Below are positions 2,618 to 59,499 of a stretch of DNA of 64,000 nucleotides, in pieces. Position 1 is the stretch's first letter; each line of letters starts with the position of its first letter. The DNA lies in NCBI GenBank assembly GCA_030704615.1, contig CM060731.1, positions 19,902,001 to 19,966,000 of the forward strand, read 5' to 3'. Made by a program: the position numbers and the translations under genes. The notes beneath the pieces are model-generated. The model saw only the letters and a list, made by a program, of their open reading frames with translations, searched no databases and was not told the DNA's origin. Origin of the DNA: Takakia lepidozioides (taxonomy: Eukaryota > Plantae > Bryophyta).

Positions 2618-3000
2618 TGTCAAGTTAAATAAGCACAGTGTGAAAACAACTAGAATAAAGCTAGTTATTTGTATTTAACACTTGGATTTAGGTCAAGTGT
2701 TAAGTTAGGTGTCAAGTTTAGTTTGACACCTGAACCGCCTTATCTTCACGAGAGCGGCAGTCGCGCAGCTCATCTCTCTCGAGTTGAGCCTGCGCGACCG
2801 AGCTCCTGCATCGTTTAGGACTGAGTGTGCTTATGATGGGAGTATAGGTTGTTGTGGGGTGGAGTCCCCATAGCTTGGGGTGCCCCTGGCTCGACTTCTG
2901 TTTTAACAAGTGATAGCGATGGATTTCATGTTGTTTCTGGTGTGAACAATGTGTCTCTTAGCTTGTTCTATCACTCGAGAGAGATGAGCTCTTACCTGTG
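2618..3000 (+). mobile_element. LTR-like repeat starting TGTCAAG, inserted into the PPR tandem unit (3' end not resolved)
   Basis: Homology with the first PPR unit (…taatgaaggc|accttc) breaks exactly at …taatgaaggc|tgtcaag. 2618-2990 is homologous to the reverse complement of 17700-17976 (shared cacttgga, gctcatctctc, ggggtgc..tggctcgact, tcactcgagagagatga). Confidence 0.55.
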
Positions 3001-4457
3001 AGTGCAAGGTAGGAGTTGAGGGTTAGCACTTGTATGATTACCTGTGTGAGAGTAGTGCTTAGTTTAAGAAGCTTAAAAATATAAAAAAATATAATATATA
3101 TGCAGGTTTCGATCAGCGTTGGTTCTGGCATGAGGCCGCCGGGCAGGACGGAGCTACACTGCATGGAAGCAGCCTTCGTTTTGGTCAGTGAGGAGACATC
3201 ATATAGTAGCAGCGATTGGCCGTTGGGAAACTGACCAAGTGCGAGACTTAAAGGGGTACCTGTGATCGAGCAGATGGGTAGAACTTCTGTGCCTGGAGAT
3301 GGCCGATCTGCTCGCCTTAGTTCGATGTGCACAGACCAGAAGCGGTCAGGAAAGGCAGCGGAAGAGCAGGTGGAGCTGGTGTAGTGGAGCCAGTTGAAGG
3401 AGGAGCTGTAAATCTGCCCCCTCCAGTAAATGCAGCGCCAACATGTAGAGCACGGCGCAGCGAGCTGGTTGAAGGTGAAGGCCCCGAGAGAGAAAGCCTA
3501 GCAGCAAAGTGATGGAGAACGGGGAGCCCATTGCTGGCATATCATCAACACTGCAAAACCAGGAGTCTCACAAAGCTTCATGCTACTTGTGATTGTGGCT
3601 GGGAAAGCTGCTTTCACCTGGTCGATTATATGCATAAGCAACCAGCTTCCTGACAAAAAGGGTTGTTGGGGGCATTGTTGATTTCGGGGAGTGCAAGGTG
3701 CAAAGTCGTTTTTAAGTGCTTCAGGTTTGTACAAAGCCAAGTAGCTGTTGCTACCTTGCACCTTGGTTCCACCATTTTGAGGTGGAAACTGGTGGAAAGT
3801 CGAATGGTGGTTCACAACCCAGCTTTCAACTCAGCACACTGCCCGAGTCCAAGTTTGTCACCATATATCTGACACTGCTCCTCCGTCCCGCCAATGGTTC
3901 TGATTGTTGAAAGATAAGTTCTTCCTTTAAGACCAAGTCCTCTCAAGTCCTCCTGACTTGGTGCAGGATTGTGGCGATACAGGTCAAGGGAGCTCCAGCT
4001 CTACTTGTCTCATCATTGAACACTTCCAACTGATCACTTGCCTCTACTGTCATTTCGGCGTCAAGGGTACTTACTTCTGCACAGGTGCTGGTCCTGGGAG
4101 TCTTAGTGCGAGATACCACATTCATTTAATTGGTGCAGGAATATGAGCTCTATCAGCTTCTGAACTCCAGACTTTCCTGATTATCCCTTTGTCTGGTGTA
4201 TGGGATGAACCCGTCTGAAAACACCAACGATGAGCAAGGTGACCCGAACTGGGCAACAGAGAACTGGGACAACCCAGGTGCAGTTGGTGGCCTTGACCAG
4301 ACCTCAAGGCCGTACTCATCCAACCGGTTAGAGTGGAAGATGGGAGGTGTGATGGTATTCATAGTATTCATGCAGCTGCCTTGGTGGGGACAGTGAATGC
4401 GAGACTGGCAGCTCAACTGGGCATTGGGATCGTAATTCAGTAGCAGGCTGATTGGAG

Positions 4458-4694
4458 TTAAAGAGGTTTGGTCATGCCAGTGTCCGAGCAGCCACTGAAT
4501 CTTGGGTCAGATTTTTTTGAAGGTATGTTGCATTGCAGTAGGCAGTGTTCCAGGGATTCTGAAACCCCAAGCGAGCAGCATGTGCAAAGCAGTGCACGGG
4601 TGAATTGAAGCCAACGCCCTACCTTTAGAATTCTATTTGCGATCTGCCAGAGAAAGACAGCCAGCTTTGCAGGATGTTTGATTGAGGGCAACAC
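4458..4694 (-). mobile_element. LINE (L1-type) ORF2 C-terminal zf-RVT fragment
   Basis: PAKLAVFLWQIANRILKVG…CTCC…ESLEHCLLQC matches the zf-RVT pattern of plant non-LTR elements. Confidence 0.65.
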
Positions 4695-5405
4695 TGCATA
4701 GCGAGGCCAGTGATTTGAATGCCGCTGAAATCTGTCACGGAAATGACCTGATTAGGTTTGGCTGAGCATGTAACCAAGTGTCAGGCAATGGAGGCAACGG
4801 CCCTTGCTGGAGGATGCATATCCAAGATGCAGGGATGGTCTGGATGATGCTGGCATAAACTGCATTTCCTCTGGCTGCTCCTACAATCTGGTTTATGTGC
4901 CCCTGGCACTATAGTGCTGAGCCCGATTAGATATTTCCGATCTGGTGCTTTCCGGGGTTGCATTGTAAGTGTTCCTGCTTTTGTTGGGAATATTGGTGCA
5001 AAGGATTAAGGCTCAGCATAGCTACGGATCTCGACTGGAGGAGAGCCAGTCACTGGGAACGAGGGAACAAGAAACCAGGGAACGGGGAACCAAGACAAGT
5101 ATTGAAAATAGAGTTTTCCTTGTATTTGTTTTGTCTTATATAAAAAAAGAAAAAGAAAAAAAAGGTGTTATGTTTAAAAAGCCTGGTTGGTCATATCTTT
5201 GTCAAATGAGCTCCGTTTGACTCAGTTCTTGAGGGGATAGCTGCAGAAAGGGGATATCTACCTATAGCCTGGTTTTTGGTTTTGGGACTCTGCTAAAAAT
5301 CTATGGAATTTTTAGAGTGTGAGTGTGCCATGAAAGATCCACAATTCTGTTTCTAGAACCTGTTCTGGTCTATATGAGAGACAAATCTGTGGATGTTCTT
5401 CTTGT

Positions 5406-6155
5406 ATGGCTGGGGGAAATGAGGACGTAATTGAAGGGCAAGTCTCGTCTCTTAGCCTGTGCACACAAGGGGACATGATTTATGTTTCCCAAGGAACTCA
5501 GACTGATTTGAGTGGAGAACAGTTGGATGAGTTGATTGCATACTGGGAGTCAGGCATTAGCAGTAGACAACAAACTGCTGTAGTTGGCGTTGATGGCCTC
5601 AATGTTGCTTTGGATAGTCAGAACTCTGTTGGAGCCAGCAGTTCTGAAGCTGTAGGTGAAATACCAAAGTGGGTGAAAGCTAGGCTTGGAACACAACCAA
5701 AGACAGCCCCAGGGACCAAGATGTCCAGCCACAAGGCCGTGGTGTACTGGAGCAGAGGAGCAGGAGCTGCACAAGTTTGTGCAATCAGACATGGTTGCAG
5801 CCGGATACGCTCTGCACAAGGCAACCACGAGCGGGGGTTCATTAGCAATGACAAGTTTGTTTTGCTTGAAGGAGATGCAGTCATTCGCAATGAGGACACC
5901 CGCAACCGTCTCAAAGCTTTCGAGTTGAGAGACTATCAAACCCTACCTTTGTTTTCTTTCGTGTTCAGTGAGCGGGAGATAGGGGAGTATTGCTTTGTCT
6001 CTACCTGGCAGAAAGAGGAGGAGGGTTGGTTAGAGCGAGCTACTGTAGCTTGGGACAAGGTTAGTGGCAGGTTTCTGGACATAGATATACCTCCTACACC
6101 TTACCATCATGCAGAGCGAGGCACTTTGAGAGAAGTCTGGCAGTTGATAGCATAG
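5406..6155 (+). CDS. 249-aa accessory ORF upstream of gag, function unknown
   Basis: Uninterrupted ORF. The homologue at 14881-15547 (-) keeps the same start context (tgtATGGCTG) and similar residues despite many synonymous-type changes. Confidence 0.7.
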   Translation: MAGGNEDVIEGQVSSLSLCTQGDMIYVSQGTQTDLSGEQLDELIAYWESGISSRQQTAVVGVDGLNVALDSQNSVGASSSEAVGEIPKWVKARLGTQPKTAPGTKMSSHKAVVYWSRGAGAAQVCAIRHGCSRIRSAQGNHERGFISNDKFVLLEGDAVIRNEDTRNRLKAFELRDYQTLPLFSFVFSEREIGEYCFVSTWQKEEEGWLERATVAWDKVSGRFLDIDIPPTPYHHAERGTLREVWQLIA

Positions 6156-6676
6156 ATCAGGATTAGATCTTGCTTGGGCGGGCTTCTATTCTTCCCCTCC
6201 ATCTCTGTACTATTTTCATTACCTTGTACTCGTAGTTGCCAAAGCCTCTCTTGGTGGAGGCCAGTCAGTCCGGGGTTTTGGGCTGGGCTATTCTGCAGGA
6301 TGAGCATTGCAGCTGGATTTTGGTGTGGGGGTGTTGATGTTTTGATTTCTTGTGTTTGGATCCTCCCCAACACCTGCATGCTTGACTGTGCGCCATGTTG
6401 GTTTTGTGTGGGCGCTTGCTTTCATAGGGATTAGGCCGGATTTGATCACCGATCAATCCTAGAGTATGCTGTCGGTGATGAGGCTGGAGTGATGACCAGC
6501 AAGACCACCAGTGTTTCTTCTATGGTGAGGCTGGGTTGATGACCAGCCAACCATAGGAGTTCTTGCGGTGGATGCAGGTGCAGGTGCCCTGAGCCACTGG
6601 GATATGATCCTTAAACTGCAACAGGTGCCTACCCTGTGTCACTATTAGTATTAGTAATAGAGCCTTATAGTGTCAC

Positions 6677-9229
6677 GTGGGGGAGGTGCACATTGTGAGT
6701 GTCATCACGGAGTTACCCAGGGGTTCTGAGGGGAGTACGGCTACAGGCAGTAGCAGTGAGAGTGGGTTCACCAGACGAGGTGTTCGTTTCAGACCACCTT
6801 CACCTCCACCCTCAACTAGTGGAGAGTCAGACACAGACTCGGAGGCTTCATCAACAGGTGTGCAGTTTCATTCGCCATTGTTGTGGGACGACATGGAGGA
6901 GATGTATGGAGCTACCAAGGGGCCTCGTAGGTACTCTGGAGCTGTGGGCACAATCGAGTTGGATGACTTTATCCAGGAGTTCGACAGCTGGTGTGATTTG
7001 TAGCAGATGCGCAATCCACAGCTATTCACCCCATTCATGGCGTGGAAGGGACTGTTCCAGCATTTGGAAGGCCCGCCTATGGACGATTACCATGAGTTCA
7101 GGCGAGGACATGAAGCAGAGATTGAGAAGTGGAGGATGTATTGGTCACCTGACTACGTCTCCATTACTTGAGGCACGACGCGACCAGTAGCTGCATCAGT
7201 ACCAATATCTCCCACTGCAAGCACTAGTAGTGGAACAAGTAGTGCCGGTACTTCTGCAGGTGGTACCAGTTCAAAAGGTGCTACTACTCCTCCTGCCACA
7301 ACTGCAACACATGTGCCTAGATTCAACCCGGTGGTGGAGTTCTTCCAGGAGTTGCGGAGGAACTACCAAGGTGTATGGACAGAGAAGCTGCGAAGTTTGC
7401 AAGACTTCCAGCGCAAGTCCAGTGAGAGCTTGCGAGAGGCCTACACTCGTATGAGGCGCTTCATAAGTGTGACCCGAGGGGTTACTGAAGCTCAGGCAAT
7501 CCAGTTCTGGTATGGAATTTTGGACAAGGAGCTCAGGAGAAGGGTGCGGGATGCAACCCTGTTACAAGCAGCCCAACCCACATTAACAGATGTGTTTCTG
7601 CTGGCTGAGCGGATTGAGCTCAACATGGTGGAGGAGCGAGTTGTTACCATTGGGTTTGGCAAGGACATGTCTGCACGAGGCGCAGCTGCCAGCCCACAGG
7701 CACAAGGGACTACCCAACAGCGTGGTCAGGGGGGCAAGGTTTCCCAACCCAAGTTCCATGGAGCTTACAGGGGACCTCAGGTGCAGAGGCCCGTGGCATC
7801 TTTTGCAGGCCAACAGCAACCAGGGGTGATATGTTGGACATGTGGAGGACCCCATGTCAAGAGAGATTGCCTAGAGAGTGGCAAAAGGCCGGCACAAACA
7901 CAGCCTGCACAGTTGCAGTGTGGGCATTGTGGCAAGTATGGGCATGGAGATGCCCAGTGTTATGACTTGCATCCTGAGTTGCGCCCAGGCCAGTTCCAAG
8001 GGAACAATGGTGGCCGGGGGCGAGGTGGACCAGCCCAGAGAGGACGAGGTGGTCGGGCACGAGGTGCAGGCCAAGGGCAAGCTCAACATGGCCAAGGACG
8101 CGGAGGTCAGGGTGTTGACCAAGGCATGGCCAACCGGCTTCAGCAGCTAGAGCAGAAGCTCGCTGCCATGGCTACAGCTCAGGCAGTACCGGCTCCCAGG
8201 CGGGATGGTCCACCTCCTGCTCCTGAGGGAGAAGATATGGGAGGCATGGGATTCATGTGCGGAGCAGCACTACCACTAGAGCAGGTGGAGTCTGCTGCAG
8301 CCGTGACTTGAGCAGCAGCACGAGTTCCTGAGCCACGAGGTGCAGAGGTGGAGTTGGATCCACAACGTGGGGAGGCAAGCCGTCAGGCGAGGCTGCCTCA
8401 GTCATTCACCTTGGCGGAGACAGTGTCAACGCCATCCATGGCACCTAGTTCTCGCCCGACTGTTACCGAGGCGGAGGTTTCTATGCCATTGGGGAGAGCT
8501 ACACGTGCATCACTGACACCTGCTGCCAAGGCTAGTGCAGCCGGTGTGTTGTTGGGGGCAGCCACCTTTGTGTGTCAAGCCCCACTATTCTTGGCAACCA
8601 TGATTGCGACGCGGGGGTAAGACCAGCTGCAGTGTTCAGACTAGCAGCAACACTCTGTGAGAGTGGGGAGGTCACTTCATCTTTTGCGGAGTTACTGGAA
8701 GGTGTAGTGGCAGAGGGATCCTCGGATTTGAGGGTCAAGACTGCCACGGCTGCGCCATGGCAAGCTGCAGCTGCCAGGTTGACAGAGCTACCAGCTAGGC
8801 TAGCCTTTGAGCGCGTCATGGTGACACCTGGAGTTGTCTTGTTAGACAACCAGGATGGCATTTTCTCTTTGAGTGGACCGGCAGGCAAGAAGTACCGGCC
8901 ACTGCGGGTCTTGTTGGACTCGGGAGCTCAACCATTGATGTTGGGCAGAGCTGCTATTGCAGGTTTGGGCCTCATGGAGGCGGATATGGAGCCTTGTCCT
9001 TTCCAGATATAGACATCTCTGGGAGGATCAGAGCAGGCTCGGGGCATGACACGACATCAGTTGGCCATTAGACTGCAGCCGGATCATCCTATCGATGGCT
9101 CAGTAATGCGAGCCAAGGCCATTGTGACAGTCGCGGTCTCTTACGATGTCCTCGTTGGTGGGGCAGTGTTATACCCCATGGGCTTCACCCTGGACTTTTG
9201 GGAGGAGTCAGCATTCTACAGGCCTGGAT
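6677..9229 (+). pseudogene. gag (capsid-like region and two CCHC knuckles) plus aspartic protease of copy 1
   Basis: LRSLQDFQRKSSESLREAYTRM (Gag homology region); CWTCGGPHVKRDC and CGHCGKYGHGDAQC; protease VLLDSGAQP and YDVLVG. ORFs at 6677, 7313 and 8348 share one frame, interrupted by point stops, with a 1-bp deletion near 8610. Confidence 0.88.
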
Positions 9230-9406
9230 CCATTGTGGGGTACGAGCAAGGATTTGCAGCAGGTTGCTGATCGACGGGTGCAACAAGCCTGGGTAGAGGC
9301 TTTTGTACCGTCAGGAGAGGAGGAGAGTGCGGGTATTGCACCAGGACCACCTCAGTTGTCACCATTGGATACCACACCTATTGTGTGGCAGTATCCGGAT
9401 GAAGGC

Positions 9407-10335
9407 ATTTGCCTTCTGGACTTGTTTGGCGGGATCAGCACCGGATTGGCTGCTATGCTACAGGCAGGTGTGCGGGTAAGGCGTTACCTGTATGTGGAGA
9501 GGGATGAGACTGCACGACGTGTCTCACTACGCCATGTTGCTCAGTTGGTACAGTAGTACCCTGCTTTGTTGCCAGTGACCAACAAGCCTTGCCAGCAGAC
9601 ATTTCGTTGCTGGGGGCGCCGGATTTGGAGCAGGTTGGCTCCATTGATCTGGTAGTGGCAGGTTGGCCCTGCCAAGGGCATTTATCAGCCGGGCATGGCA
9701 ATGGATTGCAAAACTCGAGGACGGGTCTGTTTTGGGAGATGGTGCGGATTTTGCGCCACTTGCAACTTCATCAAGCTGTATCGCCAACATACATCTTGGA
9801 GAATGTGCCACTGATGGGCAATTCTCGGGCCAGGGTGATGGCCAGTGTGCATCAAGTCCGTCGTGGCTTGGGTCAGCAGTGATGCTGGATGCAGCTGCAG
9901 TGGGATCACGGGCTCATCGTCCACGGCTATGGTGGACTAACTTGATGCCACCTGCACTGCTCAAGCGTGCATTTGATTGGGTGCAGCGGCCAACACACCT
10001 CATAGTGGACAACATTTTGGACACAGGGAAGCAGTCTCAACGTGTGAGACACGATGACCGTTCGCCTTTGGCAGTGGTCAACAGGGTGGGTCAACCACGA
10101 GCAGCATTACCTACACTGCTCAGCTTCCCAGGATCCCATGCTTTTCGGGATGGTGGACCTGGCCTCCTGTGGGATGCTCAGTTGCAACAGTTAGTGGAGC
10201 CTAATGCCAACGAGCGAGAGCGGGCAATGGGGTTTTCCACTGGGACCACGGTGGTGCCTTCTCTTTCTGAGGCATCACGTCGTCAGGTGTTGGGGCAAGC
10301 AATGGATCTCAATTGCTTGACCTGGATTATCAGCT
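9407..10335 (+). pseudogene. DNMT3-like C5 DNA cytosine methyltransferase domain inside the retrotransposon polyprotein
   Basis: Motif I LLDLFGGISTG, II YLYVERD, IV DLVVAGWPCQ (catalytic PC at 9667-9672), VI YILENVP, VIII AHRPRLWWTN, IX ERERAMGFSTGTT, X RRQVLGQAMD. Canonical motif order; one stop and two frameshifts. Confidence 0.92.
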
Positions 10336-10641
10336 TGGCTATGGCTGAACAACGTAGAGTGCGGAGTGCACTTCCCTTGACGGTCTCTCTGCCTACCGAG
10401 ACGGTACAGGCAGCGAGTGGGGGCGAGCCGGTGAGGACCACGGGGTGTAGACATCCATGGCACACGTGGGAGGTGCTCGAGGTTCAGAGGGAGTTGGCAG
10501 CCAAGGCAGCTGTGATGGATGAGGTTGGGGATTCTTCTCGGGATGAGGAGGTTCTAAATGATGAGATGATGGGGCAGGCTGAGGCCTTGTCATTGACTGA
10601 GCAGGAAGGGAGTACTGCTCAAGAGGTTGCAGCATAGCAAC

Positions 10642-11141
10642 NNNNNNNNNNNNNNNNNNNNNNNNNNNNNNNNNNNNNNNNNNNNNNNNNNNNNNNNNNN
10701 NNNNNNNNNNNNNNNNNNNNNNNNNNNNNNNNNNNNNNNNNNNNNNNNNNNNNNNNNNNNNNNNNNNNNNNNNNNNNNNNNNNNNNNNNNNNNNNNNNNN
10801 NNNNNNNNNNNNNNNNNNNNNNNNNNNNNNNNNNNNNNNNNNNNNNNNNNNNNNNNNNNNNNNNNNNNNNNNNNNNNNNNNNNNNNNNNNNNNNNNNNNN
10901 NNNNNNNNNNNNNNNNNNNNNNNNNNNNNNNNNNNNNNNNNNNNNNNNNNNNNNNNNNNNNNNNNNNNNNNNNNNNNNNNNNNNNNNNNNNNNNNNNNNN
11001 NNNNNNNNNNNNNNNNNNNNNNNNNNNNNNNNNNNNNNNNNNNNNNNNNNNNNNNNNNNNNNNNNNNNNNNNNNNNNNNNNNNNNNNNNNNNNNNNNNNN
11101 NNNNNNNNNNNNNNNNNNNNNNNNNNNNNNNNNNNNNNNNN
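10642..11141. other. Scaffold gap (500 N)
   Basis: Run of exactly 500 N; the round length suggests a gap of unknown size. Confidence 0.99.
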
Positions 11142-14100
11142 GAATGTCTTTGGCAGGGCCAACCTGCCACTACCAAATGAATGGAGCCAACCCGCTCCAA
11201 ATCTTGCGCCCCCAGCAAAGAGATGTCTGCTGGCAATGCCTGCTGGTATCCACAAACTACAGACACCGGCAACAACTTAGGTACTGCTGCACCAGTTGAG
11301 CAACATGGCATAGTGAGATGCGTCGTGCAGTCTCATCCCTCTCCACATACAAGTAATGTTGTACTCATACACCTGTTTGTAGCATATCAGCCAAACCAGT
11401 GCTGATCTCGCTAAACAAGTCCAGAAGGCAGATGCCTTCATCCGGGTACTGCCACACAATAGGTGTGGTGTCCAATGGTGACAACTGAGGTGGTCCTGGT
11501 GCAATCACCGCACTATTCTCCTCTCCTGACAGTACAAAGGCCTCTACCCAGGCTTGTTGCACCTGTCTATCAACAACATGCTGCAAATCCTTATTTGTGC
11601 CCCACAATGGAGTATGAGCAACCATGGCAGGCAATTCCGCCGTACCATGCATATCATCCTGTTCTGCTGAAGGTGACACATCCTCTGCATGAGCATTGCC
11701 TTTTAGCAACTCTCTAGGCCAAGTCACTGCACCTGTGAAGGCTGCTAGTGTCGGCATCGTGCCCCGATGGGCAGCAGCAACACCCCCAATGAATGTCACA
11801 GGAAGTTGCACCCACCGGCCATCCCCTGACTGCCATCCAGGCCTGTAAGAGGCCGACTCTTCCTAAAAATCCAGGGTGAAGCCCATGGGGTACAACACTG
11901 CCCCACCAATGAGGACATCGTAAGAGACCACGTGTGTCACAATGGCCTTGGCTCGCATCACTGAGCCATCTAATGGCCAACTCACGCCGTGTCATGCCCC
12001 GAGCCTGCTCTGATCTTCCCAGAGATGTATGTATCTGGAAAGAACATGGCTCTATATCTGCCTCTGTGAGCCCCAAACCTGCGATAGTAGCTCTGCCCAA
12101 CATAAATGGATGAGCTCCCGAGTCCAGCAATACTGGTAGTGGCCGAAATCTCTTGTCCGTCGGCCCACTCAAACAGAAAACACCATCCTGGTTGTCCAAC
12201 AAAACAACTCCAGGTGTCACCATGACGCACTCAATGGCTGGCCTAGCTGACAGCTCCATCAACCTAGCAGTTGCAGCTTGCCATAGCACAGCCATGACAG
12301 TCTTGACCCTCAAATCCGAGGATCTCTCCGATACAGCACCTTCCACTAACTCCGTAGAAAATGAAGTGATCTCCCCACTCTCATAGAGTGTCGCCGCTAG
12401 TCTAAACACTGCAGCTGGTCGTACCCCCGGCGTTGCAATCATGGTCGCCGAGAACAATGGGGCCTGACATACAGATGTGGCCGCTCCCAGCAGCACACTG
12501 GCTACACTAGCCTTGGCAGCAGGTATTGGTGCTACCCATGTGGCTCTCCCCAAGGGCACAATAACCTCCACCTCGGTATTCGTCGGGTAAGAACTAGGTG
12601 CCATGGATGGCGTCGACACTGTCTCCACCAATGTGAAGGATTGAGGCAGCCTAGCCAGACGGCTTGCATCCCCATGCTGTGGATCTAACTCCACCTCTGC
12701 ACCTCGTGGCTCATGAACTCATACTGCTCCTCGAGTCATAGCTGAAGCAGAATCCACTTGTACAAGTGGTCATCCGAGTGTTGCCCCGCACATAAATCCC
12801 ATGCCTCCCATGTCTACCATGTCTCCACCGTCAGGATGACGCTGCTAAGGAGGAACAGGAGGTGGACCCTCAGGTCTTGGAGCCGATACCACCTGAGTTG
12901 TGGCTATGGCAGCAAGTCTTTGCTCTAGCTGTTGAAGCCGGTTGGCCATGCCTTGGTCAACGCCCTGACCTCCACGTCCTTGGCCATGTTGTGGTTGCCC
13001 TCGTCCTGCACCTCGTGCCTGACCACCTCGTCCTCTCTGAGGTGTTCCATTTTGCCCTCGGCCACCATTGTTCCCTTGGAACTTGCCTCACCACAACTCA
13101 GGGTGCAAGTCATAACACTGTGCCTCTCCATGCCCATACTCGCCACAATGCAATTGTGCAGGTTGTGCTTGTGCCGGTTCTTTGCCGCTCTCTGGGCAAT
13201 CATTCTTGACATGGGGTCCTCCACATGTCCAACACACCACCTCTGGTTGTTGTTGGCCTGCAAAAGAAGCTACTGGCCTCTGTACCTGAGGTCCCCTGTA
13301 AGCTCCATGGAGTTTGGGTTGGACAACCTTGCCTCCCTGACCACGCTACGGGATGGTGTGTTGCGCTTGTTGATTGGCAGACATACCCCATGGCATGTCC
13401 TTGCCAAACCCAATGGTCACTACACGCTCTTCCACCATGTTGAGCTCAATCCGCTTAGCCAGCAAAAACAGATCTGCTAAGGTGGGTTGGGCCGCTTATA
13501 ACAGGGTTGCATCCCGCACCCTTCTTCTGAGCTCCTTGTCCAAAATTCTATACCAGAATTGGACTGCCTGAGCTTCAGTGACCCCTTGGGTCACACTTAT
13601 GAAGCGCCTCATACGAGTGTAGGCCTCTCGCAAGCTCTCACTGGACTTGCGCTGGAAGTCTTGCAAACTTCGCAGCTTCTTTGTCCGTACCCCTTGGTAG
13701 TTCCTCCGCAACTCCTGGAAGAACTCCATCACCGGGTTGAATCTAGGCACATGTGTTGTAGTCGTGGCAACAGGAGTGGTAGTACCTTTAGAACTAGTTC
13801 CACCTGCAGAAGTACCGGCAACACTTGTTCCACTACTAGTGCTTGTCGTTGGAGATGTTGGTGCTGATGCAGCTACTGGTAATGGAGACGTAGTCAGGTG
13901 ACCAATACATCCTCCACTCCTCAATCTCTGCTTCATGTCCTCGTCTGAACTCATGATAATCGTCCATAGGCGGGCCGTCCAAATGCTAGAATAGTCCCTT
14001 CCATGCCATGAATGGGGTGAACAACTGTGGATTGCGCATCTGCTGCAAATCACACCAGCTGTCGAACTCTTGCATAAAGTCATCCAGCTCAATTGTGCCC

Positions 14101-15917
14101 ACAGTTCCAGAGTACCTACGAGGCCCCTTGGTAGCTCCATACATTTCCTCCATGTCGTCCCACAACAATTTCAAATGAAACTGCACACCTGTTGATAAAG
14201 CCTCCGAGTCTGTGCTAGACTCTGCACCAGATGAAGGTGGGGATGAAGGTGGTATGAACCGAACCCCTCGCCTCGTGAACCCATTGACAGTACTGGTGCT
14301 AGTGTTGGCTTGTCTTTCTGAACCCTCTGGCAACTCCGTGATGCCCGTTGTTATCCAAACCTGTCCATGTGACACTATAAGGCTCTATAACTAGCTCTAA
14401 CAGTGACACGGGTGGGCACCTGTTGCGGCTTAAAATGTCATGTCCCAATGGCTAAGGGCACCTACACCTGCATCTACCGCAAGAACTCCTATGGTTGGCT
14501 GGTCATCAACCCTGCCTCACCATAGAAGAAACACCGGTGGTCTTGCTGGTCATTACTCCAGCCTCACCATCGACAACATACTCTAGGATTGACCGGTGAT
14601 CAAATCCGGCCTAATCCCTATGAAAGCAAGTGCCCACACAAAACCAACATGGCGCACAGTCAAGCATGCAGGCGTGGGGGGGATCCAAACACAAGAAATC
14701 AAAACATCAACACCTCCACACCAAAATCCCTCCGAAGTGCTGCTCCTGCAGAATACCCCAGCCCAAAAACCCCGGACTGATCACTGGCCTTCACCAATAG
14801 AGGCTTTGGCAACTACAACTACAAGTAAAGAAAATAGTAAAGAGAGGGAGGGGAAGAATAGAGGCCCGACCACTCAAGATCTAATCCTGATCTATGCTAT
14901 CTACATGATGGTAAGGTGTGGGAGGTATATCTATGTCCAGAAACCTGTCACTAACCTTATCCCAAGCTTCAGTAGTTCGCTCTAGCCAGCCTTCCTCCTC
15001 TCTTTGCCAGGTAGAGACAAAGCAATACTCCCATATCTCCCGCTCACTGAATACTAAAGAAAATAAAGGTAGGGTCTGACGGTCTCTCAACTCAAAAGCT
15101 TTAAGACGGTTGCGGGTGTCATCATTTTGAATGACTACATCTCCTTCAAGCAGAACAAACTGTTCGTTGCTAATGAACCCCCGCTCGTGGTTGCCTCATG
15201 CAGAGCGTGTCCGACTGTAACCACGTCTGATTGCAAAAACTTGTAGCTCCTGCTCTGCTCCAGTACACCACGGCCTTGTGGCTGAACACCTTGGTCCCCG
15301 GGACTGTCTTTGGCTGTGTTCCAAGCCTAGCTTCCACCCACTTTGGTATTTCACCTACAACTGTAGAATTGCTCTCTCCCACAGCACTCTACCCGTTGCC
15401 TGACTCCCAGTATACCACAAGGTCATCAAAATGGCTTCCACTTAGCTCAGTCTGTGTGCCTTGGGAAATATAATTTTTTTCCCCAACTGTTTGAAGACTC
15501 AACGAGGAAATGAGCCCTTCAATGGCATCATCATCCCCTCCAGCCATACACTAATCCAAAAGAGCGCCAGGTGTGTTACCAACACAAAACTCAATGATCA
15601 TCCATTCAATTGAAGTAGTTTATTCAATAGGCCTCAAATAGATATGGGGAGGGTCTAATTTACATTAGAAAAAATCTATATATTTTGGCCAGGTCCAAAA
15701 ACTTAAACCCCTTTCTGTAGGTTCCTGTGCAAGTTTGAGGTCAAACAGGCTCTGTATGCCAAAGATATGGCCAAACAGGCTATGTAAACATAATATTTGA
15801 CCTTAAATGGTAACAAATACAAGGAAAAAAAAAATCAATTAATTTCCTTTGGTTCCCCGTTCCCACGTTTTATGCGATGCCCTGCAGGTTCCACGTACAG
15901 TCACCGTTCCCAAGTGC
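11142..15917 (-). mobile_element. DNMT-carrying retrotransposon, copy 2 (inverted, degraded, cut within the DNMT domain by the gap)
   Basis: Reverse-strand homologues of the accessory ORF (15547-14881), gag (about 14375-12700), protease VLLDSGAHP, and DNMT motifs I (ICLLDLFSEISTG) and IV (LVVAGWPCQ). Confidence 0.88.
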
Positions 15918-17108: not shown

Positions 17109-17976
17109 TGTCATATTCGAACCATTGGCGGTGTTATAACAGCCGAGAGCACGCCAGGAAACATCGGCAGCCAAGAAAAATCAGAAAAATCAACCCGAGC
17201 ACAGAGAAGGAGGGACTTCGGGAGCATTTTAGCTTCAACCTCACTACTCCATGGACAATATGCCAGCATAACGTCATTCCATTTCAAATGCCATCATCTG
17301 CTGCTTCATTCCGGGCTGTCCTACCTGGTGTCCCACATGACACCTTCCTTTTATAGGGCCCACCCCCCAAAGGGGCACTAGCTGCAAGGCGAAGTGGCTC
17401 TTAGTTACTCCGGCTACGGCCAGAGTCTTCTCTCTCTCCGGGCTGTCCTTTCCCACGCATCCTCTAGCAACTGACTTGGTTCTTCATTTTAAATATTATT
17501 CTGTATGGACAAGAACAACCTCCAGCTACGGCCGGAGTCTTCTCTCTCTCCGGGCTGTCCTTTCCCACGCATCCTCATACTCGGACTGACTTGGTTCTCC
17601 ATTTTAAATATTATTCTGTATGGACAAGAACAACCTCCAGGGAGTTTGCCAAGCTGGTGGGTTTTTCTATAACTATTCCCCCACTAAATAAGCTAGACAT
17701 CATCTCTCTCGAGTGATCAATAACTAAAAACCATTACTCACACACAGAGTCGAGCCAAGTGCACCCCATGCCGTGGGGAATCCACACCTAGCGCCATAGC
17801 CATTGCGCGAGAGGCTGAGAGATGAGCCTCTCCACGATTGCCGTGAGGATAAGCATCCTCAGGTACCAAAATATTTTAACACATCATTTTGGCACTTAAT
17901 CTAATTCCAAGTGTCTAAAAATATTAACTGGTTGAATTCTAGCTAATTTTACACTATATGCATAAATTGCTTGACA
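17109..17976 (-). mobile_element. LTR-like repeat (TGTCA…TGACA) with an internal tandem duplication of about 114 bp
   Basis: 5-bp inverted termini; TATA-like ctataaaagg on the - strand near 17350; homology to 2618-2990; duplicated unit at 17412-17640. No target-site duplication seen, so the 17109 boundary is tentative. Confidence 0.5.
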
Positions 17977-18209
17977 AATTGAATTAAGTTTGGACGTAAC
18001 ATCTTCCAATTCCATTGATGAGAAAGGTGCTAAGAGATTCGTAAGCTCTACAGAAGAGATGACAAAAGGGAAACAAGCCAAAATGTCTTGTTTGGAGGTA
18101 AGATGTCAAGCAGAAGGAGGTTTCTTACTGAAAAGAGAAGAGAAGTGAAAAGCTACAAATGTTGTCATCTCCTTTGGCTTCATAAGGGAATTGTACATCT
18201 TTAAGCAAG

Positions 18210-18790
18210 CTGATTATGGTCACTGATTACTTGACCAAGTGGGTAGAAGTCCGGCCTTTGCATACCCAGAGTTTTGATGTTGTGGCTCAATTCTTCTTTG
18301 ATGAGAGATTCTTTTGCGGCATGAGAGATCCTCATGGACCAGGGTAAGGAGTTATGTAATCAGCTATTCACGGTGATATGCTTCAATTTTGGTGGGAAAC
18401 ACGTGGCTACAGCTCCTTATCATCCACAGACCAATGGCTTTACAAAGCGTTTTAACCAAACTCTTTTGTCGAATGTTGGAGAAGAATGGTGCACTACCCA
18501 GGGAGTGGGATACTTTCTGCCCTTTTTCTGCCCCTTATACTCTTTGCTTACCGCACCGCTGTGCATGCTAGTACCAAAAAGACTCTTTTTGAATTGTTGT
18601 ATGGATGCTCAGCTTGTGTCTCATCCACCATTGAGACAGATCATTTGCCGTTGAAAGCCTTGCTTATTCCTCGTGAACTAACTGGACGTTTGGCTAGATA
18701 GGCTTTGATTTTACAGGGTTATGATTTTCAGATCTCTTACAAGCAAGACAAAGAGAATGTTAATGCTGATGCATTGACTCGTGGGGAAAC
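18210..18790 (+). mobile_element. Gypsy integrase-core fragment followed by an RNase H tail (rearranged relic)
   Basis: TDYLTKWVEVRP, DQGKELCN, TAPYHPQTNG.T.RFNQTL, then TDHLPLKAL…GRLAR*ALILQGYDFQISYKQDKENVNADALTR. Confidence 0.85.
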
Positions 18791-19199
18791 TAAGCCTCCT
18801 GCCCCTTACACTACTCTAGATGATATCGTTCATGTTCTTTCTTCCCCTTCTGTTACTGCACACCTGTCACTGATCCTTATGCATTATGTCATCTGCTGGA
18901 TTTCCCTTATGTTCCTCCCGATCTGCTAGATTCTTGGGATCTAGTTCAATTTGATGTTCCTTAAATTTCCTGCTTGGTACTTGGCAATGCTCGTAGGTTG
19001 GCAATCTGCAGGGTCCTTAGACACTCCGTCTACAGTCATCCATGTTGTAGATGCAACCTAACCTCCCGATGCCAAGATACACAAAAAGGCAGATGCATGC
19101 CATCCCGGCACCATCTCCTCGTTCATCTCACCATGCCACCGAGCTCCAGTGTCATCCTGCTGGCTCGTGCATGGATTGCGACTCAATGCAGCTGCTCAG

Positions 19200-19780
19200 T
19201 CACTCCCCCCCCCCACATCCGCATTCCTATTGACCAAACCCGGTCGATACATAACCTGAAAGTTATACTCCTGGAGTATAAAGCCCACCGTGCAAGCTCC
19301 CCCGTAAGCTTGTCTGACTCCATCAACCACTTGAGTGGCTGGTGATCCGTGACAATGGTGAAGAGATTGTCGTATAGATAGCACCTGAAGTGTGCCACGG
19401 CCCACACTGCAGCTAAGCACTCCCCCTCATATGAGCTATACTTAGACTCTGCAGCGTTGTTCGAGCGGCTAGCATAAGCCACTACGAACTCTCTTCCCTC
19501 ATCATCCACCTGTGTGAGCACCGCTCCAAGCCCCAACATGCTCCAATATGTATGCACATGAAAGGGACGCCCCCTGATAGGTCGTCTCAAGATCGGCGTC
19601 GAGGTCAACCTCGCCTTGAGCTCCTAAAAAGCTCGCTCTTGCTCATCTTCCCACTGCCACTCCTGGTCTACCTTGGTCAGCTTAGTTAGAGCCTTTGCAA
19701 TAGCACTTAATCCCTTGACAAACCGTCTATAGTAGTTTGTCAACCCCATGAAAGCTCGAACTCGGCTCACATAAGCCAGG
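19200..19780 (-). mobile_element. Gypsy RT-connection and RNase H fragment
   Basis: RAFMGLTNYYRRFVKG; GLGAVLTQVDDEGREFVVAYASRSNNAAESKYSSYEGECLAAVWAVAHFRCYLY; TDHQPLKWL. Confidence 0.9.
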
Positions 19781-19784
19781 TGGT

Positions 19785-20090
19785 GCCAGAGATATACATA
19801 AGGATTCGGTTGTGTTGGACTACCTCCGTACTGGAGACACGGCAGCTAATGTGACTGCCAAGGAGAGGGATCGGATCCTACAACGAGCCAAGAGGTTCAA
19901 GTGGGAGGGGATACACCTGCTTCGAGTGTGGGAGGATGGTCGGGTGAGGATTGTGCCTCACCCAACATAGCGTGCATGATTAGTGCGGCATGCCCATGAG
20001 GAGTTGGGGCATTTGGAGTGCGACGCACTCATAGTTTACTGCAGGGGCAGTATTGGTGGCGTGGTATGCACACAGAGGTGCAACAGTTCA
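19785..20090 (+). mobile_element. Gypsy integrase N-terminal zinc-binding fragment, inverted relative to the adjacent RNase H
   Basis: ERDRILQRAKRFKWEG…HAHEELGH…LQGQYWWRGM. Confidence 0.8.
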
Positions 20091-22224: not shown

Positions 22225-23400
22225 GAACACCAAAAGTTGTGCATGGTTAATGGCCAGAAGTCTAATTTCTTTGACATTGACCAAGATGTAGCTCAAGGTT
22301 GTGTCCTCTACCCACTCTCTTCAATGTTTTCATATTCAGCTCCTTGAAAATGTGGGTTATCCCATCCAATCTTCAGGAGTTGATTTATTGTGCAAAGAGG
22401 TAGTTTAGCCTATGGAAGCTAGAAGCCAATGCTAGTAAATGCGCAGTGGTGGCCTTCAACAATTGTGAGGAGCGAGGAGGGTAGTGAAGAGATCCCTCTG
22501 CTCCCTTCCTCTTGGTGTTCAGTTTTCCTCCAATTGTAACTGGGGTGCGCATATACAAAAGATGATAAATGCAAAGCTGGGTCTCACTCAATTTTGCCAC
22601 TGCAAAAGGATAAATACTGAAGTTAAAAAGACCATGCTTTGCAACATTAATAGGCCTACCTTGGAGTACAAATCCGGGGTGACAACTCCAACAATGCTAA
22701 AACTTTAGAATCCATTCGGTTTTTGGTGCTCAAAGAGATTACTACATCGTGCTCTAGAACAGTTAACATGACTGCTCAGGTTGGGTTTGGAATACCCCCC
22801 TTGCGCTCTCAATGTGATGAGTTCAAGGTCAGATGGTGGGGTCAGTGGAATCGCACGCCTTATACCCGATACCCTGAGATGATCGACTCTATTTTTGAAA
22901 GCAAGAGCGTCCTGTTAATCAGGCCAAGTCCTGGCCGAAAAGGGGGTTTTCCTGAATGTTAGGCAGAAAGAACTGACCCTGCTAGATGCAGCTGACTTGG
23001 AGGCTGAAGTGTCTAAGGTCGTGATGGAAGCCCGAAGCACGTCCAAACAAAACAAAACGAAGTTAGGCATAAAACCTCCCTGAACTTGTTTCCAGTATAT
23101 GCCATGGGTTTGGACCTTAAGGATGATGTCATAGGCCTAGCTACCCTCGGCACTGACTGAAATTTAAACTCAGGGCGGAGCCAACCTTTGAACAGTAAGA
23201 TGCAGAAAGGAAAGGGAGATTGTCAAAGCCCAAAGAGCCGCCTAAAGGCAATATCCATTTTCTGATACAATGTCCGGAGTATTCTCATCAGAGCGACCCT
23301 CTTCAGGACCATCAAGCACATCGTCCCTGCACCTCTGTTCACCGACTTTCAAAAATCTCGAGGCTGAGCCTAAAGCCCTCACCTTGTTGGGGTCATTGTA
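22225..23400 (+). mobile_element. Degenerate 5'-truncated LINE, same family as 25746-27339
   Basis: NFFDIDQDVAQGC, LGVQFSSNCNW.AHIQ, EVKKTMLC and HFLIQCPEYSHQ all match the minus-strand copy. Confidence 0.85.
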
Positions 23401-23899: not shown

Positions 23900-26800
23900 C
23901 ATGATTTGGATGGAACACTATGATCTCTGGGAGAAGAGCAACAGCGAGCCTATAGCAACAGCAGCTCATCAGAAGCGCCAACAGCTGTGCCAATTCTAGA
24001 AAGCATTTGGAATAGGTAACATACATTGAGGTTCGTTGAGATATCGGATGGAGGACGGACATGTCAATGCAGTGCATAAGCCAAGCCCCTGCATTCAAGG
24101 ATAATAATGTCAGATTATTATGAGGGTTATTTATCCTCCATCACATGCCATGTTACCACGTAGCTATGCTTCCTATTACAAAATCATGGGCCTTTCTTTC
24201 TAAAATTAGAGAAGATCATGGGAAGGGAGGAATAATACCCGTTGAATAAGTGTCGACTTCTTGGGCTTGCCAGAATACTTATGCCCCGTGATTTTCATCC
24301 AGTCTTCTTGTATCTCCTTACGGGTAAGGACTAGGTGGAGTTTGGGCAGCTTCAAGGGGGGAGGAGCAGGTTCTTCATTTGCCAAGCGCTGAGCAACCCG
24401 CTTGGAGCGTTTGGTGGCCCCCTTGGTACCACTGTTGGGTAACGCAGGCAATGTTGGCTGCACAGCTTCGCTACTTCGGTTCCTGCCACACTCGCAAAAA
24501 GCTGCACTTAAAATCTCCACATTTGCACTTAAACATGTATGAAAGTATCCCGCTAACTACACCCATACTCACTTTGATGAGCATGCAATTGGCTCATCTA
24601 CATTGACGTTGAGAGGGGGCCCATCAGTTGGTTATGTCAGACGAAAAGAAGCTTTCTCTGTGAGTTTAGGCATGAGTAACTCATTTTCAGACATGCCTAG
24701 CTTAATTCAGACTTCTCCAAAGCCTGCTTTCTGCATTACTAAGACAAAAGACACTGCAATTGATTATACATGCTAACCCTTGTCTTCTTTCCGACACAAA
24801 ATCTTCCAAAAAATCTCCCCATGGCTGACTCAAGAATTCACACTTGACGGAAAATGCTAACTTGCCTTTACACAAAATCTTCCAGAAATCTACTCATCAC
24901 GTCACTCCGATCTCCAAATGAACTTGATAATAGCCCCACAAATTTGTCCAGAAAGCACTCTACTATATTGATTTATACTCAGTTTACGCCAAGTGCATGC
25001 CTGACATACGTTTGGCATGGCTTCTCAGACTTGGTAAGAAGAGGGACAATGACAGTCTCTTTTGAGTGGACCTTCGTTGAACTTACAGAGCACCTACCAC
25101 CTCCTGAGTGGAGGTGAGGCTATCTCTGATATGCTAGACAAGATCAGTGGCTGGTTGCGTAAACTACAAGCTTGCTACTAGAGCAGTCATCCTTAGCAAA
25201 TTAAGCACTTCCTCAAAAGCTCAAAGTTTTGACAATAGGGTACCTTGTCAATGACCGCAAGCCACGCTCTGCCTCATCCTTGGGCGGGGTGAATGACCGT
25301 GGCAAGCGTCTTTGTCTTCGGCGGAGCGGTTGAGCCACCTGCTGCTGTGGGGCAAGCTGATGTGGCTGCCGCCGAGCTGGGGTGGCTTGTGCAGGCTGTT
25401 GCTTACACCGACGCATCCTCCCACCTTCTCCTTCTCCTGGGCCTACAGAATCCTTAGTTGTGTTTTGAGCAGCCCGCTTTTGGTCACCTTCGTGTTCTTT
25501 GCGGGGCTTTTTGGCATCTGAGCGTTGCCGCTGATGCTGTTGTTTTTTCCCTCGAGATCGTTGATTGATAGGCGTGGCTTCAGCTCCCTGTAAGTCTGTT
25601 GCAGGCTCTTCTCCTTCCCCATCTCTCTCCTCTGACCCTTCGTTCCTTTGGAGCTTCACAACATCCTCGTCACTGAGATCCCTTGAAATATTAAGGACCA
25701 ACCAAGACAGTGTTACTCCTTATAGCACCAAACTGATGATATTTAGTGGCATAAATAGATTGTACTCATAAGACGTTGTTTGCCGTAGCCTTGTGGCATA
25801 AATAGATTGTACTCATAAGACATTGTTTGCCGTAGCCTTGTGGCCATTGACCCCACGCCCAGTCTGAACGGAACATATAGGGACAGAAACTACCTTTGTC
25901 AAGGGCTGACGCCGGTAGTATGATTTACCTTGGAATAAACAGTTGATCCGAGATTTCCAGATATCCTCCAGAAATCCCTTCACACAAGTATCAATCTGAT
26001 GTGTGTGATTTGCCCAATAGCTAGACCCCAAAAGGGCCTGGGCTTTTGGCTCAGCCTCAAGATTTTCAAAGTGGTTAAACAGAGGTACAGGCACAATTTC
26101 CTTGATGGAATTGCAGAGGGTGTCCCATTGGTGAGAGTATCCAGGACAATGAATCAGGAATATTGTCTTCAGGTTGCCCACACAACGGGCACTTACAATC
26201 CCCCTTTCCTCTCTGCGACTGTTTGTTGTTCAAAGGTAGGCTACCCGCCCTGAGTTTGAATTTTCAGTCTAGTGCCGAGGGTGGGTAGACCCTTGAGGTC
26301 ATCCATGATGGCCTCACCCATGTCACAGACTGGAAAGAGGTTCAGGGAAGTTTTCTGCCTAACTTCATTTTCTTCAGACAATTTCCTGGCAATAGACATG
26401 GCTTCAGAAACTTCAGCTTCTAAGCCAGATTTATCCAGCAGGGTCATGGCTAGTGGACTAAGATTCAGATCCTTGAAAATCTCTTCTACCCTTTTCCGCC
26501 AGGATTTAGCCTGTTTGACAGGGTGGTCCTGCTTCCAAGATTTAGAGTCGATTAACTTAGGATATCTGGTATTAGCCATACGTTGCAGCTGACCCCACCA
26601 TCTGATTTTGAATTCATCGCGTCGGGAGCTTAAGGGAGGAATGCCAAACCCACCCCGAACACCACATTAGCTGTTTTGGAGCATGCTGACATGCACTCCT
26701 TGAGCACCCCGACTTGGTTGGATTCAAGAGACTTAGCCTGGTTGGAGTTATCAACCCATACAGCAGATGCATACTCCAAGGCCGGCCTGATAACGCGGCA

Positions 26801-27711
26801 AAGCATGGTTTTTTTGACTTCAGAGTTGATCCCTCTGCAGTGGAAAAATTTAGTGAGACCCAGCGCTTTGCGTTTGCCAGATTGAACCACTCTTTGAATA
26901 TGTGCTTCCCAATTACAGTTGGAGGAAAACTCAACACCAAGATAGGTGTAGGAGGGGAGAACAGGGATCTCTTGGCTTCCCCACTGCCACTTGAGATCGC
27001 CTCCTCCTTCCCCCCGGTCGTTGAATGCCACCGCTGTGCATTTACTGACATTGGCCTCTAGCCCCCAAAGATCAAAGTATCTCTTCGCGCAATCTATCAG
27101 CCCCTGGAGGTTGGAAGGAGTCTCCCCTATGCCTGCGAAGTCATCCGCAAACATAAGGGCTGGTATGGTGGCATCACCCACCCTTAACCCAAATCCCTCA
27201 CTTTCCACATCCTCCAGTAGTTGATTGATGAAAACATTGAAGAGCAGAGGGGAGAGGGTACATCCTTGAGCTACACCTTGGTCTATGTCAAAGAAATTAA
27301 ACTTCTTAAATTGTGGCATTGAATTGTGGCATAAATAGAGATGAAGTCAGAGAGCAGCATAGGTGAAGTTAAGACCAAAACCACTTTCATTGAGGTCCTA
27401 CTACACTGATGATAGTCAGTAGCATATACCAAAACCAGCATTTATAGCTTTCCTGCTTTAGTTTCATACACTGCTGCCAATCCAACATTCCAACATCATT
27501 GCTGATGAGCCCTTCAAACACAAAGAAGGTCAATGAAGGTATGCACCAACATCCAACACAAGTAAGGACTCAAAGCACACTTGCACAGAAGACAAGAGGG
27601 GCCCTCAAAGCCATACCTTTTTCCGTAAAACAACTTCATGCCAGTACCCTCCATGACCTCACTGTCATCATGACGCTTACGCCCACCATATGTAGCACGG
27701 GAGCTGGACAT
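23900..27711 (-). CDS. DUF1639-family protein gene (multi-exon; 5' exons and exact ends uncertain; LINE in an intron)
   Basis: Exon 24501-24239 encodes KLHLVLTRKEIQEDWMKITGHKYSGKPKKSTLIQR and splices GT-AG in phase 0 to 24088 (GLGLCTALTCPSSIRYLNEPQ). An upstream charged exon lies at about 25683-25244. Confidence 0.6.
25746..27339 (-). mobile_element. 5'-truncated non-LTR retrotransposon (RT plus C-terminal CCHC) with a 14-bp TSD
   Basis: GVAQGCTLSPLLFNVFIN and LMFADDF RT motifs; CPLC…FLIHCPGY; gtggcataaataga at 25746-25759 and 27326-27339. Confidence 0.93.
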
Positions 27712-58500: not shown

Positions 58501-59499
58501 GACTTTTGTTGGCCAAAAAAAAAAGAAAAAAGGGCCTAATGGCAGCCTTCGGGCACTCAAGGGTTTTATTTTTTCTCCCTTCAATAACTCTCAATAAAGC
58601 TCCGAAGGGCTTCCTCCCCTTTTCCTAAGCAAAAAAAAAGAAAAAGAAACCGTAAAAAAATTACAAAAACAAATCTGAATTCATCTCCAAATTTTTTCCC
58701 TGGATGGATATCTTATGCAAAGAAGTGTATTATTGTGAGCACAATTTTCTAGAGTGAGCACATTTTTGTTTTGCTTTGTTGTTTCTTTTTGTAAGAAGGG
58801 ATGGGCACATTTTCGTTTTTTTTTTTTTTCCCCCCAACAGGGGAATTGTATCCCTGTTTAACTTACTTTATTATAAAATATTTTGGGTAGGCGAAAAAAC
58901 CACCTTACAAGTTATTTCTATTTATTCGGGGGAAAAAAATTAAAACCCCTTTTTCGTTAAGTTAGTTCCCTATAACATATTTTTTTGTGCATATTCCTAA
59001 AAATATGTGGAGTATCCTATTTTGCTCATACCCCACATAGATTCCTAGAATATTCTTTGTTCCAGTGGTTTGGGTGGGGTAATGCTCAGGGTCTGGCAAT
59101 TTTTATTTTTATTTTTATTTTTAATAAAGGTCTGGCAATTATATCGTTCTACAATAAACTAAATGGCCAACGCCTTTTATTAGGAAAAAAAGAAAAAAAG
59201 AAAAGTTTATATAGGTATATATTCCTATAATAGTCCGTGAGCACAGCTTCATATGTCAAGTTTCCTCACTTTACAACACATTTGTGAAGGCAAGCTTGAA
59301 ACCCTAACAGTCCTGAAACCCTCAGATTGGAAGTAGGTGCTGGAGATATGAATAAGAAGCAGGATGCATGCAAACATCTTACCATTCAACTGGTGACACG
59401 CTTCGGATTTCTCTAAGTGTTTTTCAATACTAGTACCTTTGAGTGCAAAACAAACTTGAAGATTTGCTGTGAGAGAGAGAGAGTAGAGAGTGAGCAGCT

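Follow-up and report, generated by a model that had tools for sequence, protein, structure and literature searches.

A bryophyte Ty3/Gypsy family with a DNMT3-type methyltransferase in its Gag frame, ahead of a conserved stop codon, and with permuted end repeats in relatives

Retrotransposons that carry a cytosine methyltransferase of their own are known from dinoflagellates and from Klebsormidium nitens, where KnitGypsy-Dnmt3 has DIRS-like repeats and a Ka/Ks below 0.2 and was called a lineage-specific acquisition (de Mendoza et al. 2018, PMC5890265; here and below, sources are cited for the accessible part of their text). Methylation of their own complementary DNA (cDNA) was previously proposed for the dinoflagellate elements (PMC5890265), and Marchantia does not occur in the main text of that paper. 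Such elements are assigned only to 'streptophytes' in the accessible text of PMC12344493 and bioRxiv 10.64898/2026.05.21.726589, whilst that of PMC6453930, PMC10952607 and bioRxiv 10.1101/363937 covers host methyltransferases with no mention of them. Within a literature coverage that left out most subscription journals, we found no report of DNMT-bearing elements in land plants beyond PMC5890265 and papers citing it, and no description of a split or permuted end anatomy for an integrase element. Why some retrotransposons carry the enzyme that usually silences them has been an open question since 2018; part of the reason is that dinoflagellates and Klebsormidium, the hosts so far known, are hard to work with. 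Here we describe a Ty3/Gypsy family with a DNMT3-type methyltransferase (DNMT) in a land plant, from two decayed copies within 64,000 nucleotides of Takakia lepidozioides (contig CM060731.1, positions 19,902,001 to 19,966,000; hereafter the window, in whose own numbering coordinates are given) and from related loci and proteins. Its enzyme lies in the Gag frame ahead of a conserved stop codon, and its relatives have permuted ends; on sequence evidence it is a real and new form of Gypsy-DNMT3 element.

Self-priming in Tf1 uses 11 nt, and Tcn1-type elements have normal long terminal repeats (LTRs). Bryophyte Gypsy elements of the Tcn1/Tf1-Sushi kind self-prime without a tRNA primer (PMC6317226), and neither 'PHD' nor 'methyltransferase' occurs in the main text of that survey. 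Elements of the PAT, Toc, Kangaroo and Ngaro groups have split direct repeats and a tyrosine recombinase without an integrase, the PAT group with a putative methyltransferase (PMC4157794) that is of adenine type (PMC5890265). Like KnitGypsy-Dnmt3, the family described here is of Gypsy type and combines an intronless, unpermuted DNMT3-like domain under purifying selection with DIRS-like repeats, the latter here seen in relatives. Whereas KnitGypsy-Dnmt3 is said to have its DNMT in the Pol open reading frame (ORF) alongside reverse transcriptase (RT) plus RNase H (RH), here it ends ORF1, before the conserved stop; the hosts are embryophytes rather than Klebsormidium, and self-priming, target-site duplications (TSDs), junction anatomy and a PHD finger are absent from the accessible text on KnitGypsy-Dnmt3 in PMC5890265, whose supplement may show more structure. 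With Tcn1/Tf1-Sushi elements the family shares its bryophyte setting, Gypsy type and self-priming layout, but it carries a PHD finger where those have a chromodomain, and in addition a DNMT and permuted ends. With the split-repeat groups it shares A1-B1-A2-B2 repeats, with PAT also the presence of a methyltransferase, and it differs from all of them in its DDE integrase, TG...CA ends and 4-bp TSDs. The enzyme itself has the unpermuted motif order and signature segments of host DNMT3 of non-flowering plants and of animal DNMT3A/B (PMC6453930), yet shows only 21-23% identity to DNMT3A, lacks DUF3444, PWWP and ADD domains, and has longer insertions behind motif II and within the target-recognition region.

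In the window, copy 1 runs from 2618 to 10641 on the plus strand and copy 2 from 17976 to 11142 on the minus strand, at ~85% identity and head-to-head across an assembly gap of 500 N (10642-11141) that separates them. The start at 2618 makes the element longer than the interval 6677-10641 first noted in a preliminary description of this DNA. The head-to-head layout at a gap of round length may originate in scaffolding. RT and integrase are not seen downstream of the copy 1 DNMT because of this gap; one contig from public-data run X8 extends ~1.8 kb beyond 10641. Run X1 of the organism's public DNA data places 47,592 short contigs on 5000-10641 at identities from above 99% to below 90%, many of them unlike copy 1 at its break positions, and this shows a multi-copy family, depth not being equivalent to copy number. 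To judge by these sequences, the window copies are dead members of an old Ty3/Gypsy family that bryophytes carry in multiple copies.

The arrangement proposed in the preliminary description, Gag with two zinc knuckles, protease, linker and C5 methyltransferase motifs without introns, was recovered in full in copy 1 (6671-10641). On the plus strand, Gag occupies 6671-8620 (core 6893-7669, zinc knuckles 7832-7870 and 7919-7960, three internal stops; 65% identity to Marchantia Gag), followed by an aspartic protease region at 8614-9228 (DSG at 8917), a linker at 9230-9403 that is shortened in copy 1, and the DNMT3-like C5 cytosine methyltransferase at 9404-10352, split over three frames. Motif I lies at 9425, PCQ at 9667, ENV at 9799, AHRPR at 9912 and ERAMGF and RRQVLG near 10219-10290, all 12 motif codons checked being intact, those of the catalytic motifs included. 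A Pfam search returned a DNA_methylase match on 9580-9879 (E 4e-11), and the Pfam matches for Gag and protease in copy 1 were weak (E ~0.02, below cut-off). A single reading frame, once lesions are corrected against copy 2, had also been claimed. Copy 1 itself is not one open frame, with five stops (7001, 7169, 8309, 9010 and 9554), three frame changes (near 8611, 9577 and 9870) and ~220 nt absent at 9229 relative to copy 2; in copy 2 (Gag to DNMT motif IV, 11142-14384, minus strand) the protease C-terminus, linker and motifs I-II share one frame, and in the natural relatives P0003, P0005, P0049 and P0051 Gag-protease-DNMT is a single protein.

Comparison of a relative's domain with enzymes in the PDB by phmmer favoured DNMT3A (E 2e-11; best group DNMT3A/B/C) over DNMT2/HhaI (4e-4) and DRM (2e-3 or worse), and a Foldseek search with its predicted fold, a middling model (pLDDT 66), gave only DNMT3 among the matches listed (TM ~0.56, identity 21-23%). 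The domain is, on this evidence from sequence and modelled fold, a DNMT3-type C5 methyltransferase with motifs I, II, IV (PC), VI (ENV), VIII and X in unpermuted order, as the preliminary description had proposed. Among 63 collapsed related loci the catalytic residues are largely kept (P 59/59, C 57/59, E 57/62, N 60/62); in motif VIII, arginines decay at CpG codons (38/60). Between the window and these loci, the ratio of 0-fold to 4-fold transversions was 0.14 for the DNMT (0.08-0.23) and 0.13 for RH, with Gag and protease below 0.1 at saturated 4-fold sites, indicating that the DNMT is under purifying selection between lineages.

The methyltransferase is not confined to this host. With its C-terminal piece as query, 31 longer proteins were found, of which 13 were named, from Marchantia (11), Calypogeia and Sphagnum; these, together with a GET3 frame in the window that best matches Ceratodon, agree with the land-plant host that had been proposed. 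From metagenomes we took the best 80 of 211 confirmed stretches as related loci. All 80 carry the DNMT, 49 have the start of RT behind it, and at least 10 have Gag-protease-DNMT-RT-RH-integrase-PHD in one piece, the RT-RH-integrase-PHD part lying in the same frame as the DNMT beyond the conserved stop. The linkage of DNMT to RT and integrase that the gap hides in the window is thereby established in relatives. Their RT/RH best matched Ty3 in the PDB (E 4e-48) and they carry an rve integrase core and H2C2, in the protease-RT-RH-integrase order of a Gypsy element, as first suggested; domain scans of these relatives gave no tyrosine recombinase and no chromodomain match. Their PHD finger resembles those of KMT2C, CHD4, KDM5 and PHF21A. 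Several of these read unmethylated H3K4, and by this likeness the finger may aim the element at silent chromatin.

In a DNMT tree (IQ-TREE quick search, 61 rows, run without bootstrap, outgroup or host DNMT3 and excluding near-duplicates, spliced models and matches below 200 aa), the window copy fell into a 14-row group with liverwort and moss proteins (SH-aLRT 99), and the loci grouped with Sphagnum fallax. An RT tree (FastTree) had weak deep nodes and no named reference RTs, and neither tree orders events. A profile search returned 35 further long polyproteins, mostly with the DNMT between RH and integrase; 225 clusters at 50% identity scored E<=1e-30. Given the tree group, the polyproteins and the clusters, the window DNMT belongs, as far as sequence relationships tell, to an old and wide clade and is not a local capture. 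DNMT amino acid identity is 64-79% across liverworts, mosses and the window host, and the full-length relatives examined were polyproteins, one of them from a chlorophyte. No named Klebsormidium sequence was among the homologue search matches and none was placed in the trees; a viral contig search (query P0178) and a genome contig search (query P0003) gave no relatives. Many of the polyproteins (P0195, P0028, P0179-P0211) have the DNMT between RH and integrase and also a PHD finger. This is a second architecture, and with one polyprotein assigned to Haematococcus lacustris, a chlorophyte, it carries Gypsy-DNMT3 beyond streptophytes. A second, distant DNMT-bearing Gypsy family (~37% identity), with the DNMT likewise before RT, lies in the same host DNA at L066:940-6200 (minus strand) and L066:19111-20362 (plus strand).

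The position of the DNMT relative to Pol is the point at which the family departs from the preliminary description, which had set the enzyme within a Gypsy pol between protease and RT. It does lie between these two domains, but it ends ORF1 rather than forming part of Pol proper. In the frame common to DNMT and RT, 38 of 40 collapsed loci carry a stop codon at a distance of 17 codons upstream of RT (TAG 26, TAA 12), with CAACCC directly after it in 36 loci, whereas CAG>TAG decay elsewhere in the DNMT affects 8-11 of ~60 loci. This conserved stop makes ORF1 a Gag-protease-DNMT frame. Copy 1 ends in the same context, a TAG followed by CAA C (10635-10641, plus strand; predicted readthrough site), at 94 codons from the DNMT compared with 79 in L001, and most bryophyte-group relatives end 50-130 residues past the DNMT. 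Five NCBI gene models join DNMT to RT through spacers 1-75 residues long, where L001 has 96 codons, as would result were a predicted intron to skip the stop. In the more distant relatives P0178, P0182, P0185, P0187 and P0212, DNMT, RT and RH share one open frame. The context UAG-CAA-CCC resembles the tobacco mosaic virus (TMV) readthrough context UAG-CAA-UUA, and gammaretroviral readthrough runs at 6-9% (PMC13517186). As the stop separates DNMT from RT, the DNMT is likely made in Gag-like amounts and RT-RH-integrase-PHD by readthrough; if so, the stop position predicts a large excess of DNMT per particle, ~10-fold or more over RT.

In copy 1 the 5' terminal repeat A1 (2618-2973, plus strand) begins with TGTCA and ends with CA; its start coincides with a break at 2617/2618 at which a paralogous empty site (1683-1745) stops exactly, and it has ~66% identity with the end of copy 2, whose A1 and primer-binding site lie at 17700-17976 on the minus strand. 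Both copies begin TGTCAAG (2618 and 17976), and only their 5' ends are visible in the window. Adjoining A1 of copy 1 is a predicted self-priming primer-binding site (2974-2990, plus strand), a perfect inverted match to 2767-2783 (plus strand), which would be the 5' end of the transcript. This pair of 17-18 nt is the sole such pair in the window outside a hairpin cluster at 52.4-53.4 kb, and its letters differ from those of the loci on both sides. The same layout is found in 13 of 20 loci, where the 11 nt after A1 pair (at least 9 of 11) with position 150-185 of A, in a region ~30 nt past a TATA box in those loci that keep the box intact. A tRNA primer site was considered and rejected, as the letters after A1 lack an initial TGG and pair with A itself.

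In the loci, the TGTCA start lies in a repeat A of ~339 nt and the GACA end in a repeat B of ~113 nt, with a purine tract directly before B1. Because the primer site immediately follows A1 and the purine tract immediately precedes B1, the LTR is B+A. Nevertheless B was found before A1 in none of 21 loci, hence no two complete identical LTRs exist; the forms are A-body-B or A-body-B-A-B with CA|NN|TG junctions, and among distinct insertions the 3' form was B in 10, B-A-B in 6 and broken off early in 2. Split repeats are complete in L028, L056/L078 and L066, and their 3' part is present in L006, L040 and L071. The B|A junction is a palindrome, CA|GC|TG (GC kept in 4/8), and A2|B2 reads CA|GT|TG in six of seven loci. 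This A|B junction corresponds exactly to the right end of a B+A LTR joined to the left end set by the polypurine tract, that is, a 2-LTR circle junction, and the ends of the inserted elements fall at the inner B|A palindrome. Among seven two-ended insertions, the TSD is an exact 4-bp repeat in four and matches at 3/4 positions in two, the seventh having a damaged 5' end. In L051:6343-6589 and L065:8602-8848, the 3' region and repeat B stand inverted before the primer-site region in place of A1, possibly through autointegration.

We consider it rather probable that a family with this Gag-protease-DNMT3 first frame packs the DNMT to methylate its own cDNA and integrates from a circle re-cut inside the LTR. 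Rare readthrough of UAG-CAA-CCC would yield RT and integrase, and the protease would release the DNMT, whose most likely role, from its place in ORF1, would be to methylate cDNA inside the particle. Self-primed reverse transcription would give an ordinary cDNA with a B+A LTR that closes to 1-LTR or 2-LTR circles, and integrase would open the circle at the CA|GC|TG palindrome between B and A, then insert it. HIV-1 integrase is able to cleave a palindromic 2-LTR circle junction in vitro (PMC1905944; see also PMC1180852). From 1-LTR circles would come dead-end A-body-B copies, and from 2-LTR circles A-body-B-A-B copies, the sole form with R at both ends and so able to transpose again. The cDNA would reach the genome already methylated, like host heterochromatin, towards which the PHD finger may steer it. 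More speculatively, and in our view doubtful, a green-lineage Gypsy clade may have swapped linear-end processing for circle-first integration at an internal palindrome, its bryophyte members co-packaging DNMT3 at Gag stoichiometry, with DNMT and integrase as a modification-restriction pair that chooses the junction.

Several points weigh against the packaging and re-cut circle model. It is drawn from sequence. What it says of the end structure, the TSDs and the RT link derives from Sphagnum-like relatives, the 3' half of the window element lying in the gap, and the 2.1-2.5 kb between A1 and the common interior differ between copies 1 and 2, so that in the window A1 and Gag are tied together by position. 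Although the B|A palindrome occurs twice, and equally, in a 2-LTR circle, A-B-A-body-B was seen in 0 of 21, which the model leaves unexplained. A-body-B could alternatively arise by B1 x B2 recombination. For readthrough, the CARYYA consensus is matched in only 1 of 40 loci, the context being CAACCC, and the predicted stem-loop after the stop has z of -0.1 to -2.5. Among the loci alone, transversion ratios look neutral for all domains (DNMT 0.85, 0.57-1.46; RT 0.88) and NG86 gave 0.60 for DNMT against 0.39 for RT. The selection expected at the outset thus appears between lineages and not within the lineage; the latter ratios are uninformative because decay after insertion dominates them, even in RT.

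Those within-lineage ratios are what a neutral passenger, recently captured from a host DNMT3, would show, but the between-lineage ratio, the conservation across liverworts, mosses and the window host, the number of clusters, the polyprotein nature of the examined full-length relatives and the low identity to DNMT3A already largely refute that idea, named beforehand, as a one-off host capture, among the refuting outcomes, and leave it scarcely credible. Should the enzyme instead act in the nucleus on the host genome or integrated copies, as self-silencing or insertion-site marking, Gag-level synthesis would supply it amply; host DNMT3 performs de novo methylation in Physcomitrium (PMC6453930), and self-restraint has been raised as an option (PMC5890265). 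The domain, however, has no PWWP, ADD or DUF3444 targeting part, its fusion to Gag predicts delivery into particles, and algal-type relatives with the DNMT inside Pol, between RH and integrase, point to the cDNA complex; we hold nuclear action to be quite improbable.

The ends invite two further explanations, both of which we judge unlikely. Copying in the manner of PAT/Ngaro would run from RNA that spans A1 into B2, with the inner B1-A2 junction as a bridge and no ordinary LTR cDNA, the DNMT still marking the cDNA. The layout equals the A1-B1-A2-B2 of PAT elements (PMC4157794), A2|B2 junctions are uniform as templating predicts, and A-body-B-A-B as the sole form would be accounted for; yet the primer site right after A1 and the purine tract right before B1 are what a B+A LTR needs, and there is a DDE integrase with TSDs and no detected tyrosine recombinase. 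Alternatively, the DNMT could be the protective half of a restriction-modification-like pair, whose methylation of one CAGCTG junction, or of similar internal sites, would confine integrase to a single opening of the circle and yield copies able to transpose again. In keeping with this, each strand of the palindrome holds two CHG cytosines and its decay in the loci is by transitions, of the two cuts that a 2-LTR circle allows one is seen and the other is not (0/21), and split repeats co-occur with a methyltransferase in KnitGypsy-Dnmt3 (PMC5890265) and in DIRS/PAT (PMC4157794). Host methylation alone would nevertheless predict the junction decay, split repeats occur in the absence of a methyltransferase in Ngaro and Viper (PMC4157794), the majority share of A-body-B (10 of 16) would make any protection leaky, and the sequence preference of the enzyme is conjecture.

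Marchantia polymorpha, a genetic model for which methylation mutants exist, carries many copies of the family, which makes cDNA methylation, readthrough and circle integration directly testable. Permuted ends, if they come from circle re-cutting, would mean that a DDE integrase takes an unusual route. A-body-B copies, which are common, lack a terminal repeat and would therefore escape standard LTR annotation, and the family inflates DNMT gene counts in bryophyte annotations. Should the circle-first, modification-restriction reading be true, these elements would provide land plants with a mobile source of de novo methylation and would go unnoticed by LTR finders.

An additional frame of 273 codons lies in the 5' internal region of copy 1 (5334-6155, plus strand), with a broken counterpart in copy 2 (~14860-15700, minus strand); its third-position bias is weak, and it gave no Pfam family, no Atlas match >=0.9 and no match among the 80 loci. 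Detached pieces, apparently of the same family, are an RH fragment at 19115-19770 (minus strand; 73% amino acid identity to the RH of Marchantia P0014, 76% DNA identity to the loci) and, inverted relative to it, the start of an integrase at 19788-20080 (plus strand; 78% DNA identity to the loci). Other Gypsy elements have left scrambled pieces of integrase/RH and RT at 18200-18800 and 31095-31337 (both plus strand). Copy 1 is inserted into one of a series of ~295-nt repeated units (1096-2617) resembling decayed PPR-type coding repeats. An old inverted duplication of ~1.1 kb (22256-23394 and 26024-27306) has 70% identity, and 52450-53410 holds a nested cluster of direct and inverted repeats with long perfect arms, resembling a hairpin or a miniature inverted-repeat transposable element. 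The GET3/ArsA ATPase frame at 59494-60609 (plus strand) is intact, intronless and 371 codons long and may be a retrocopy, matching Ceratodon at 80%, Calypogeia, Sphagnum, Riccia, Marchantia and Physcomitrium at 77-78% and angiosperms at ~70%.

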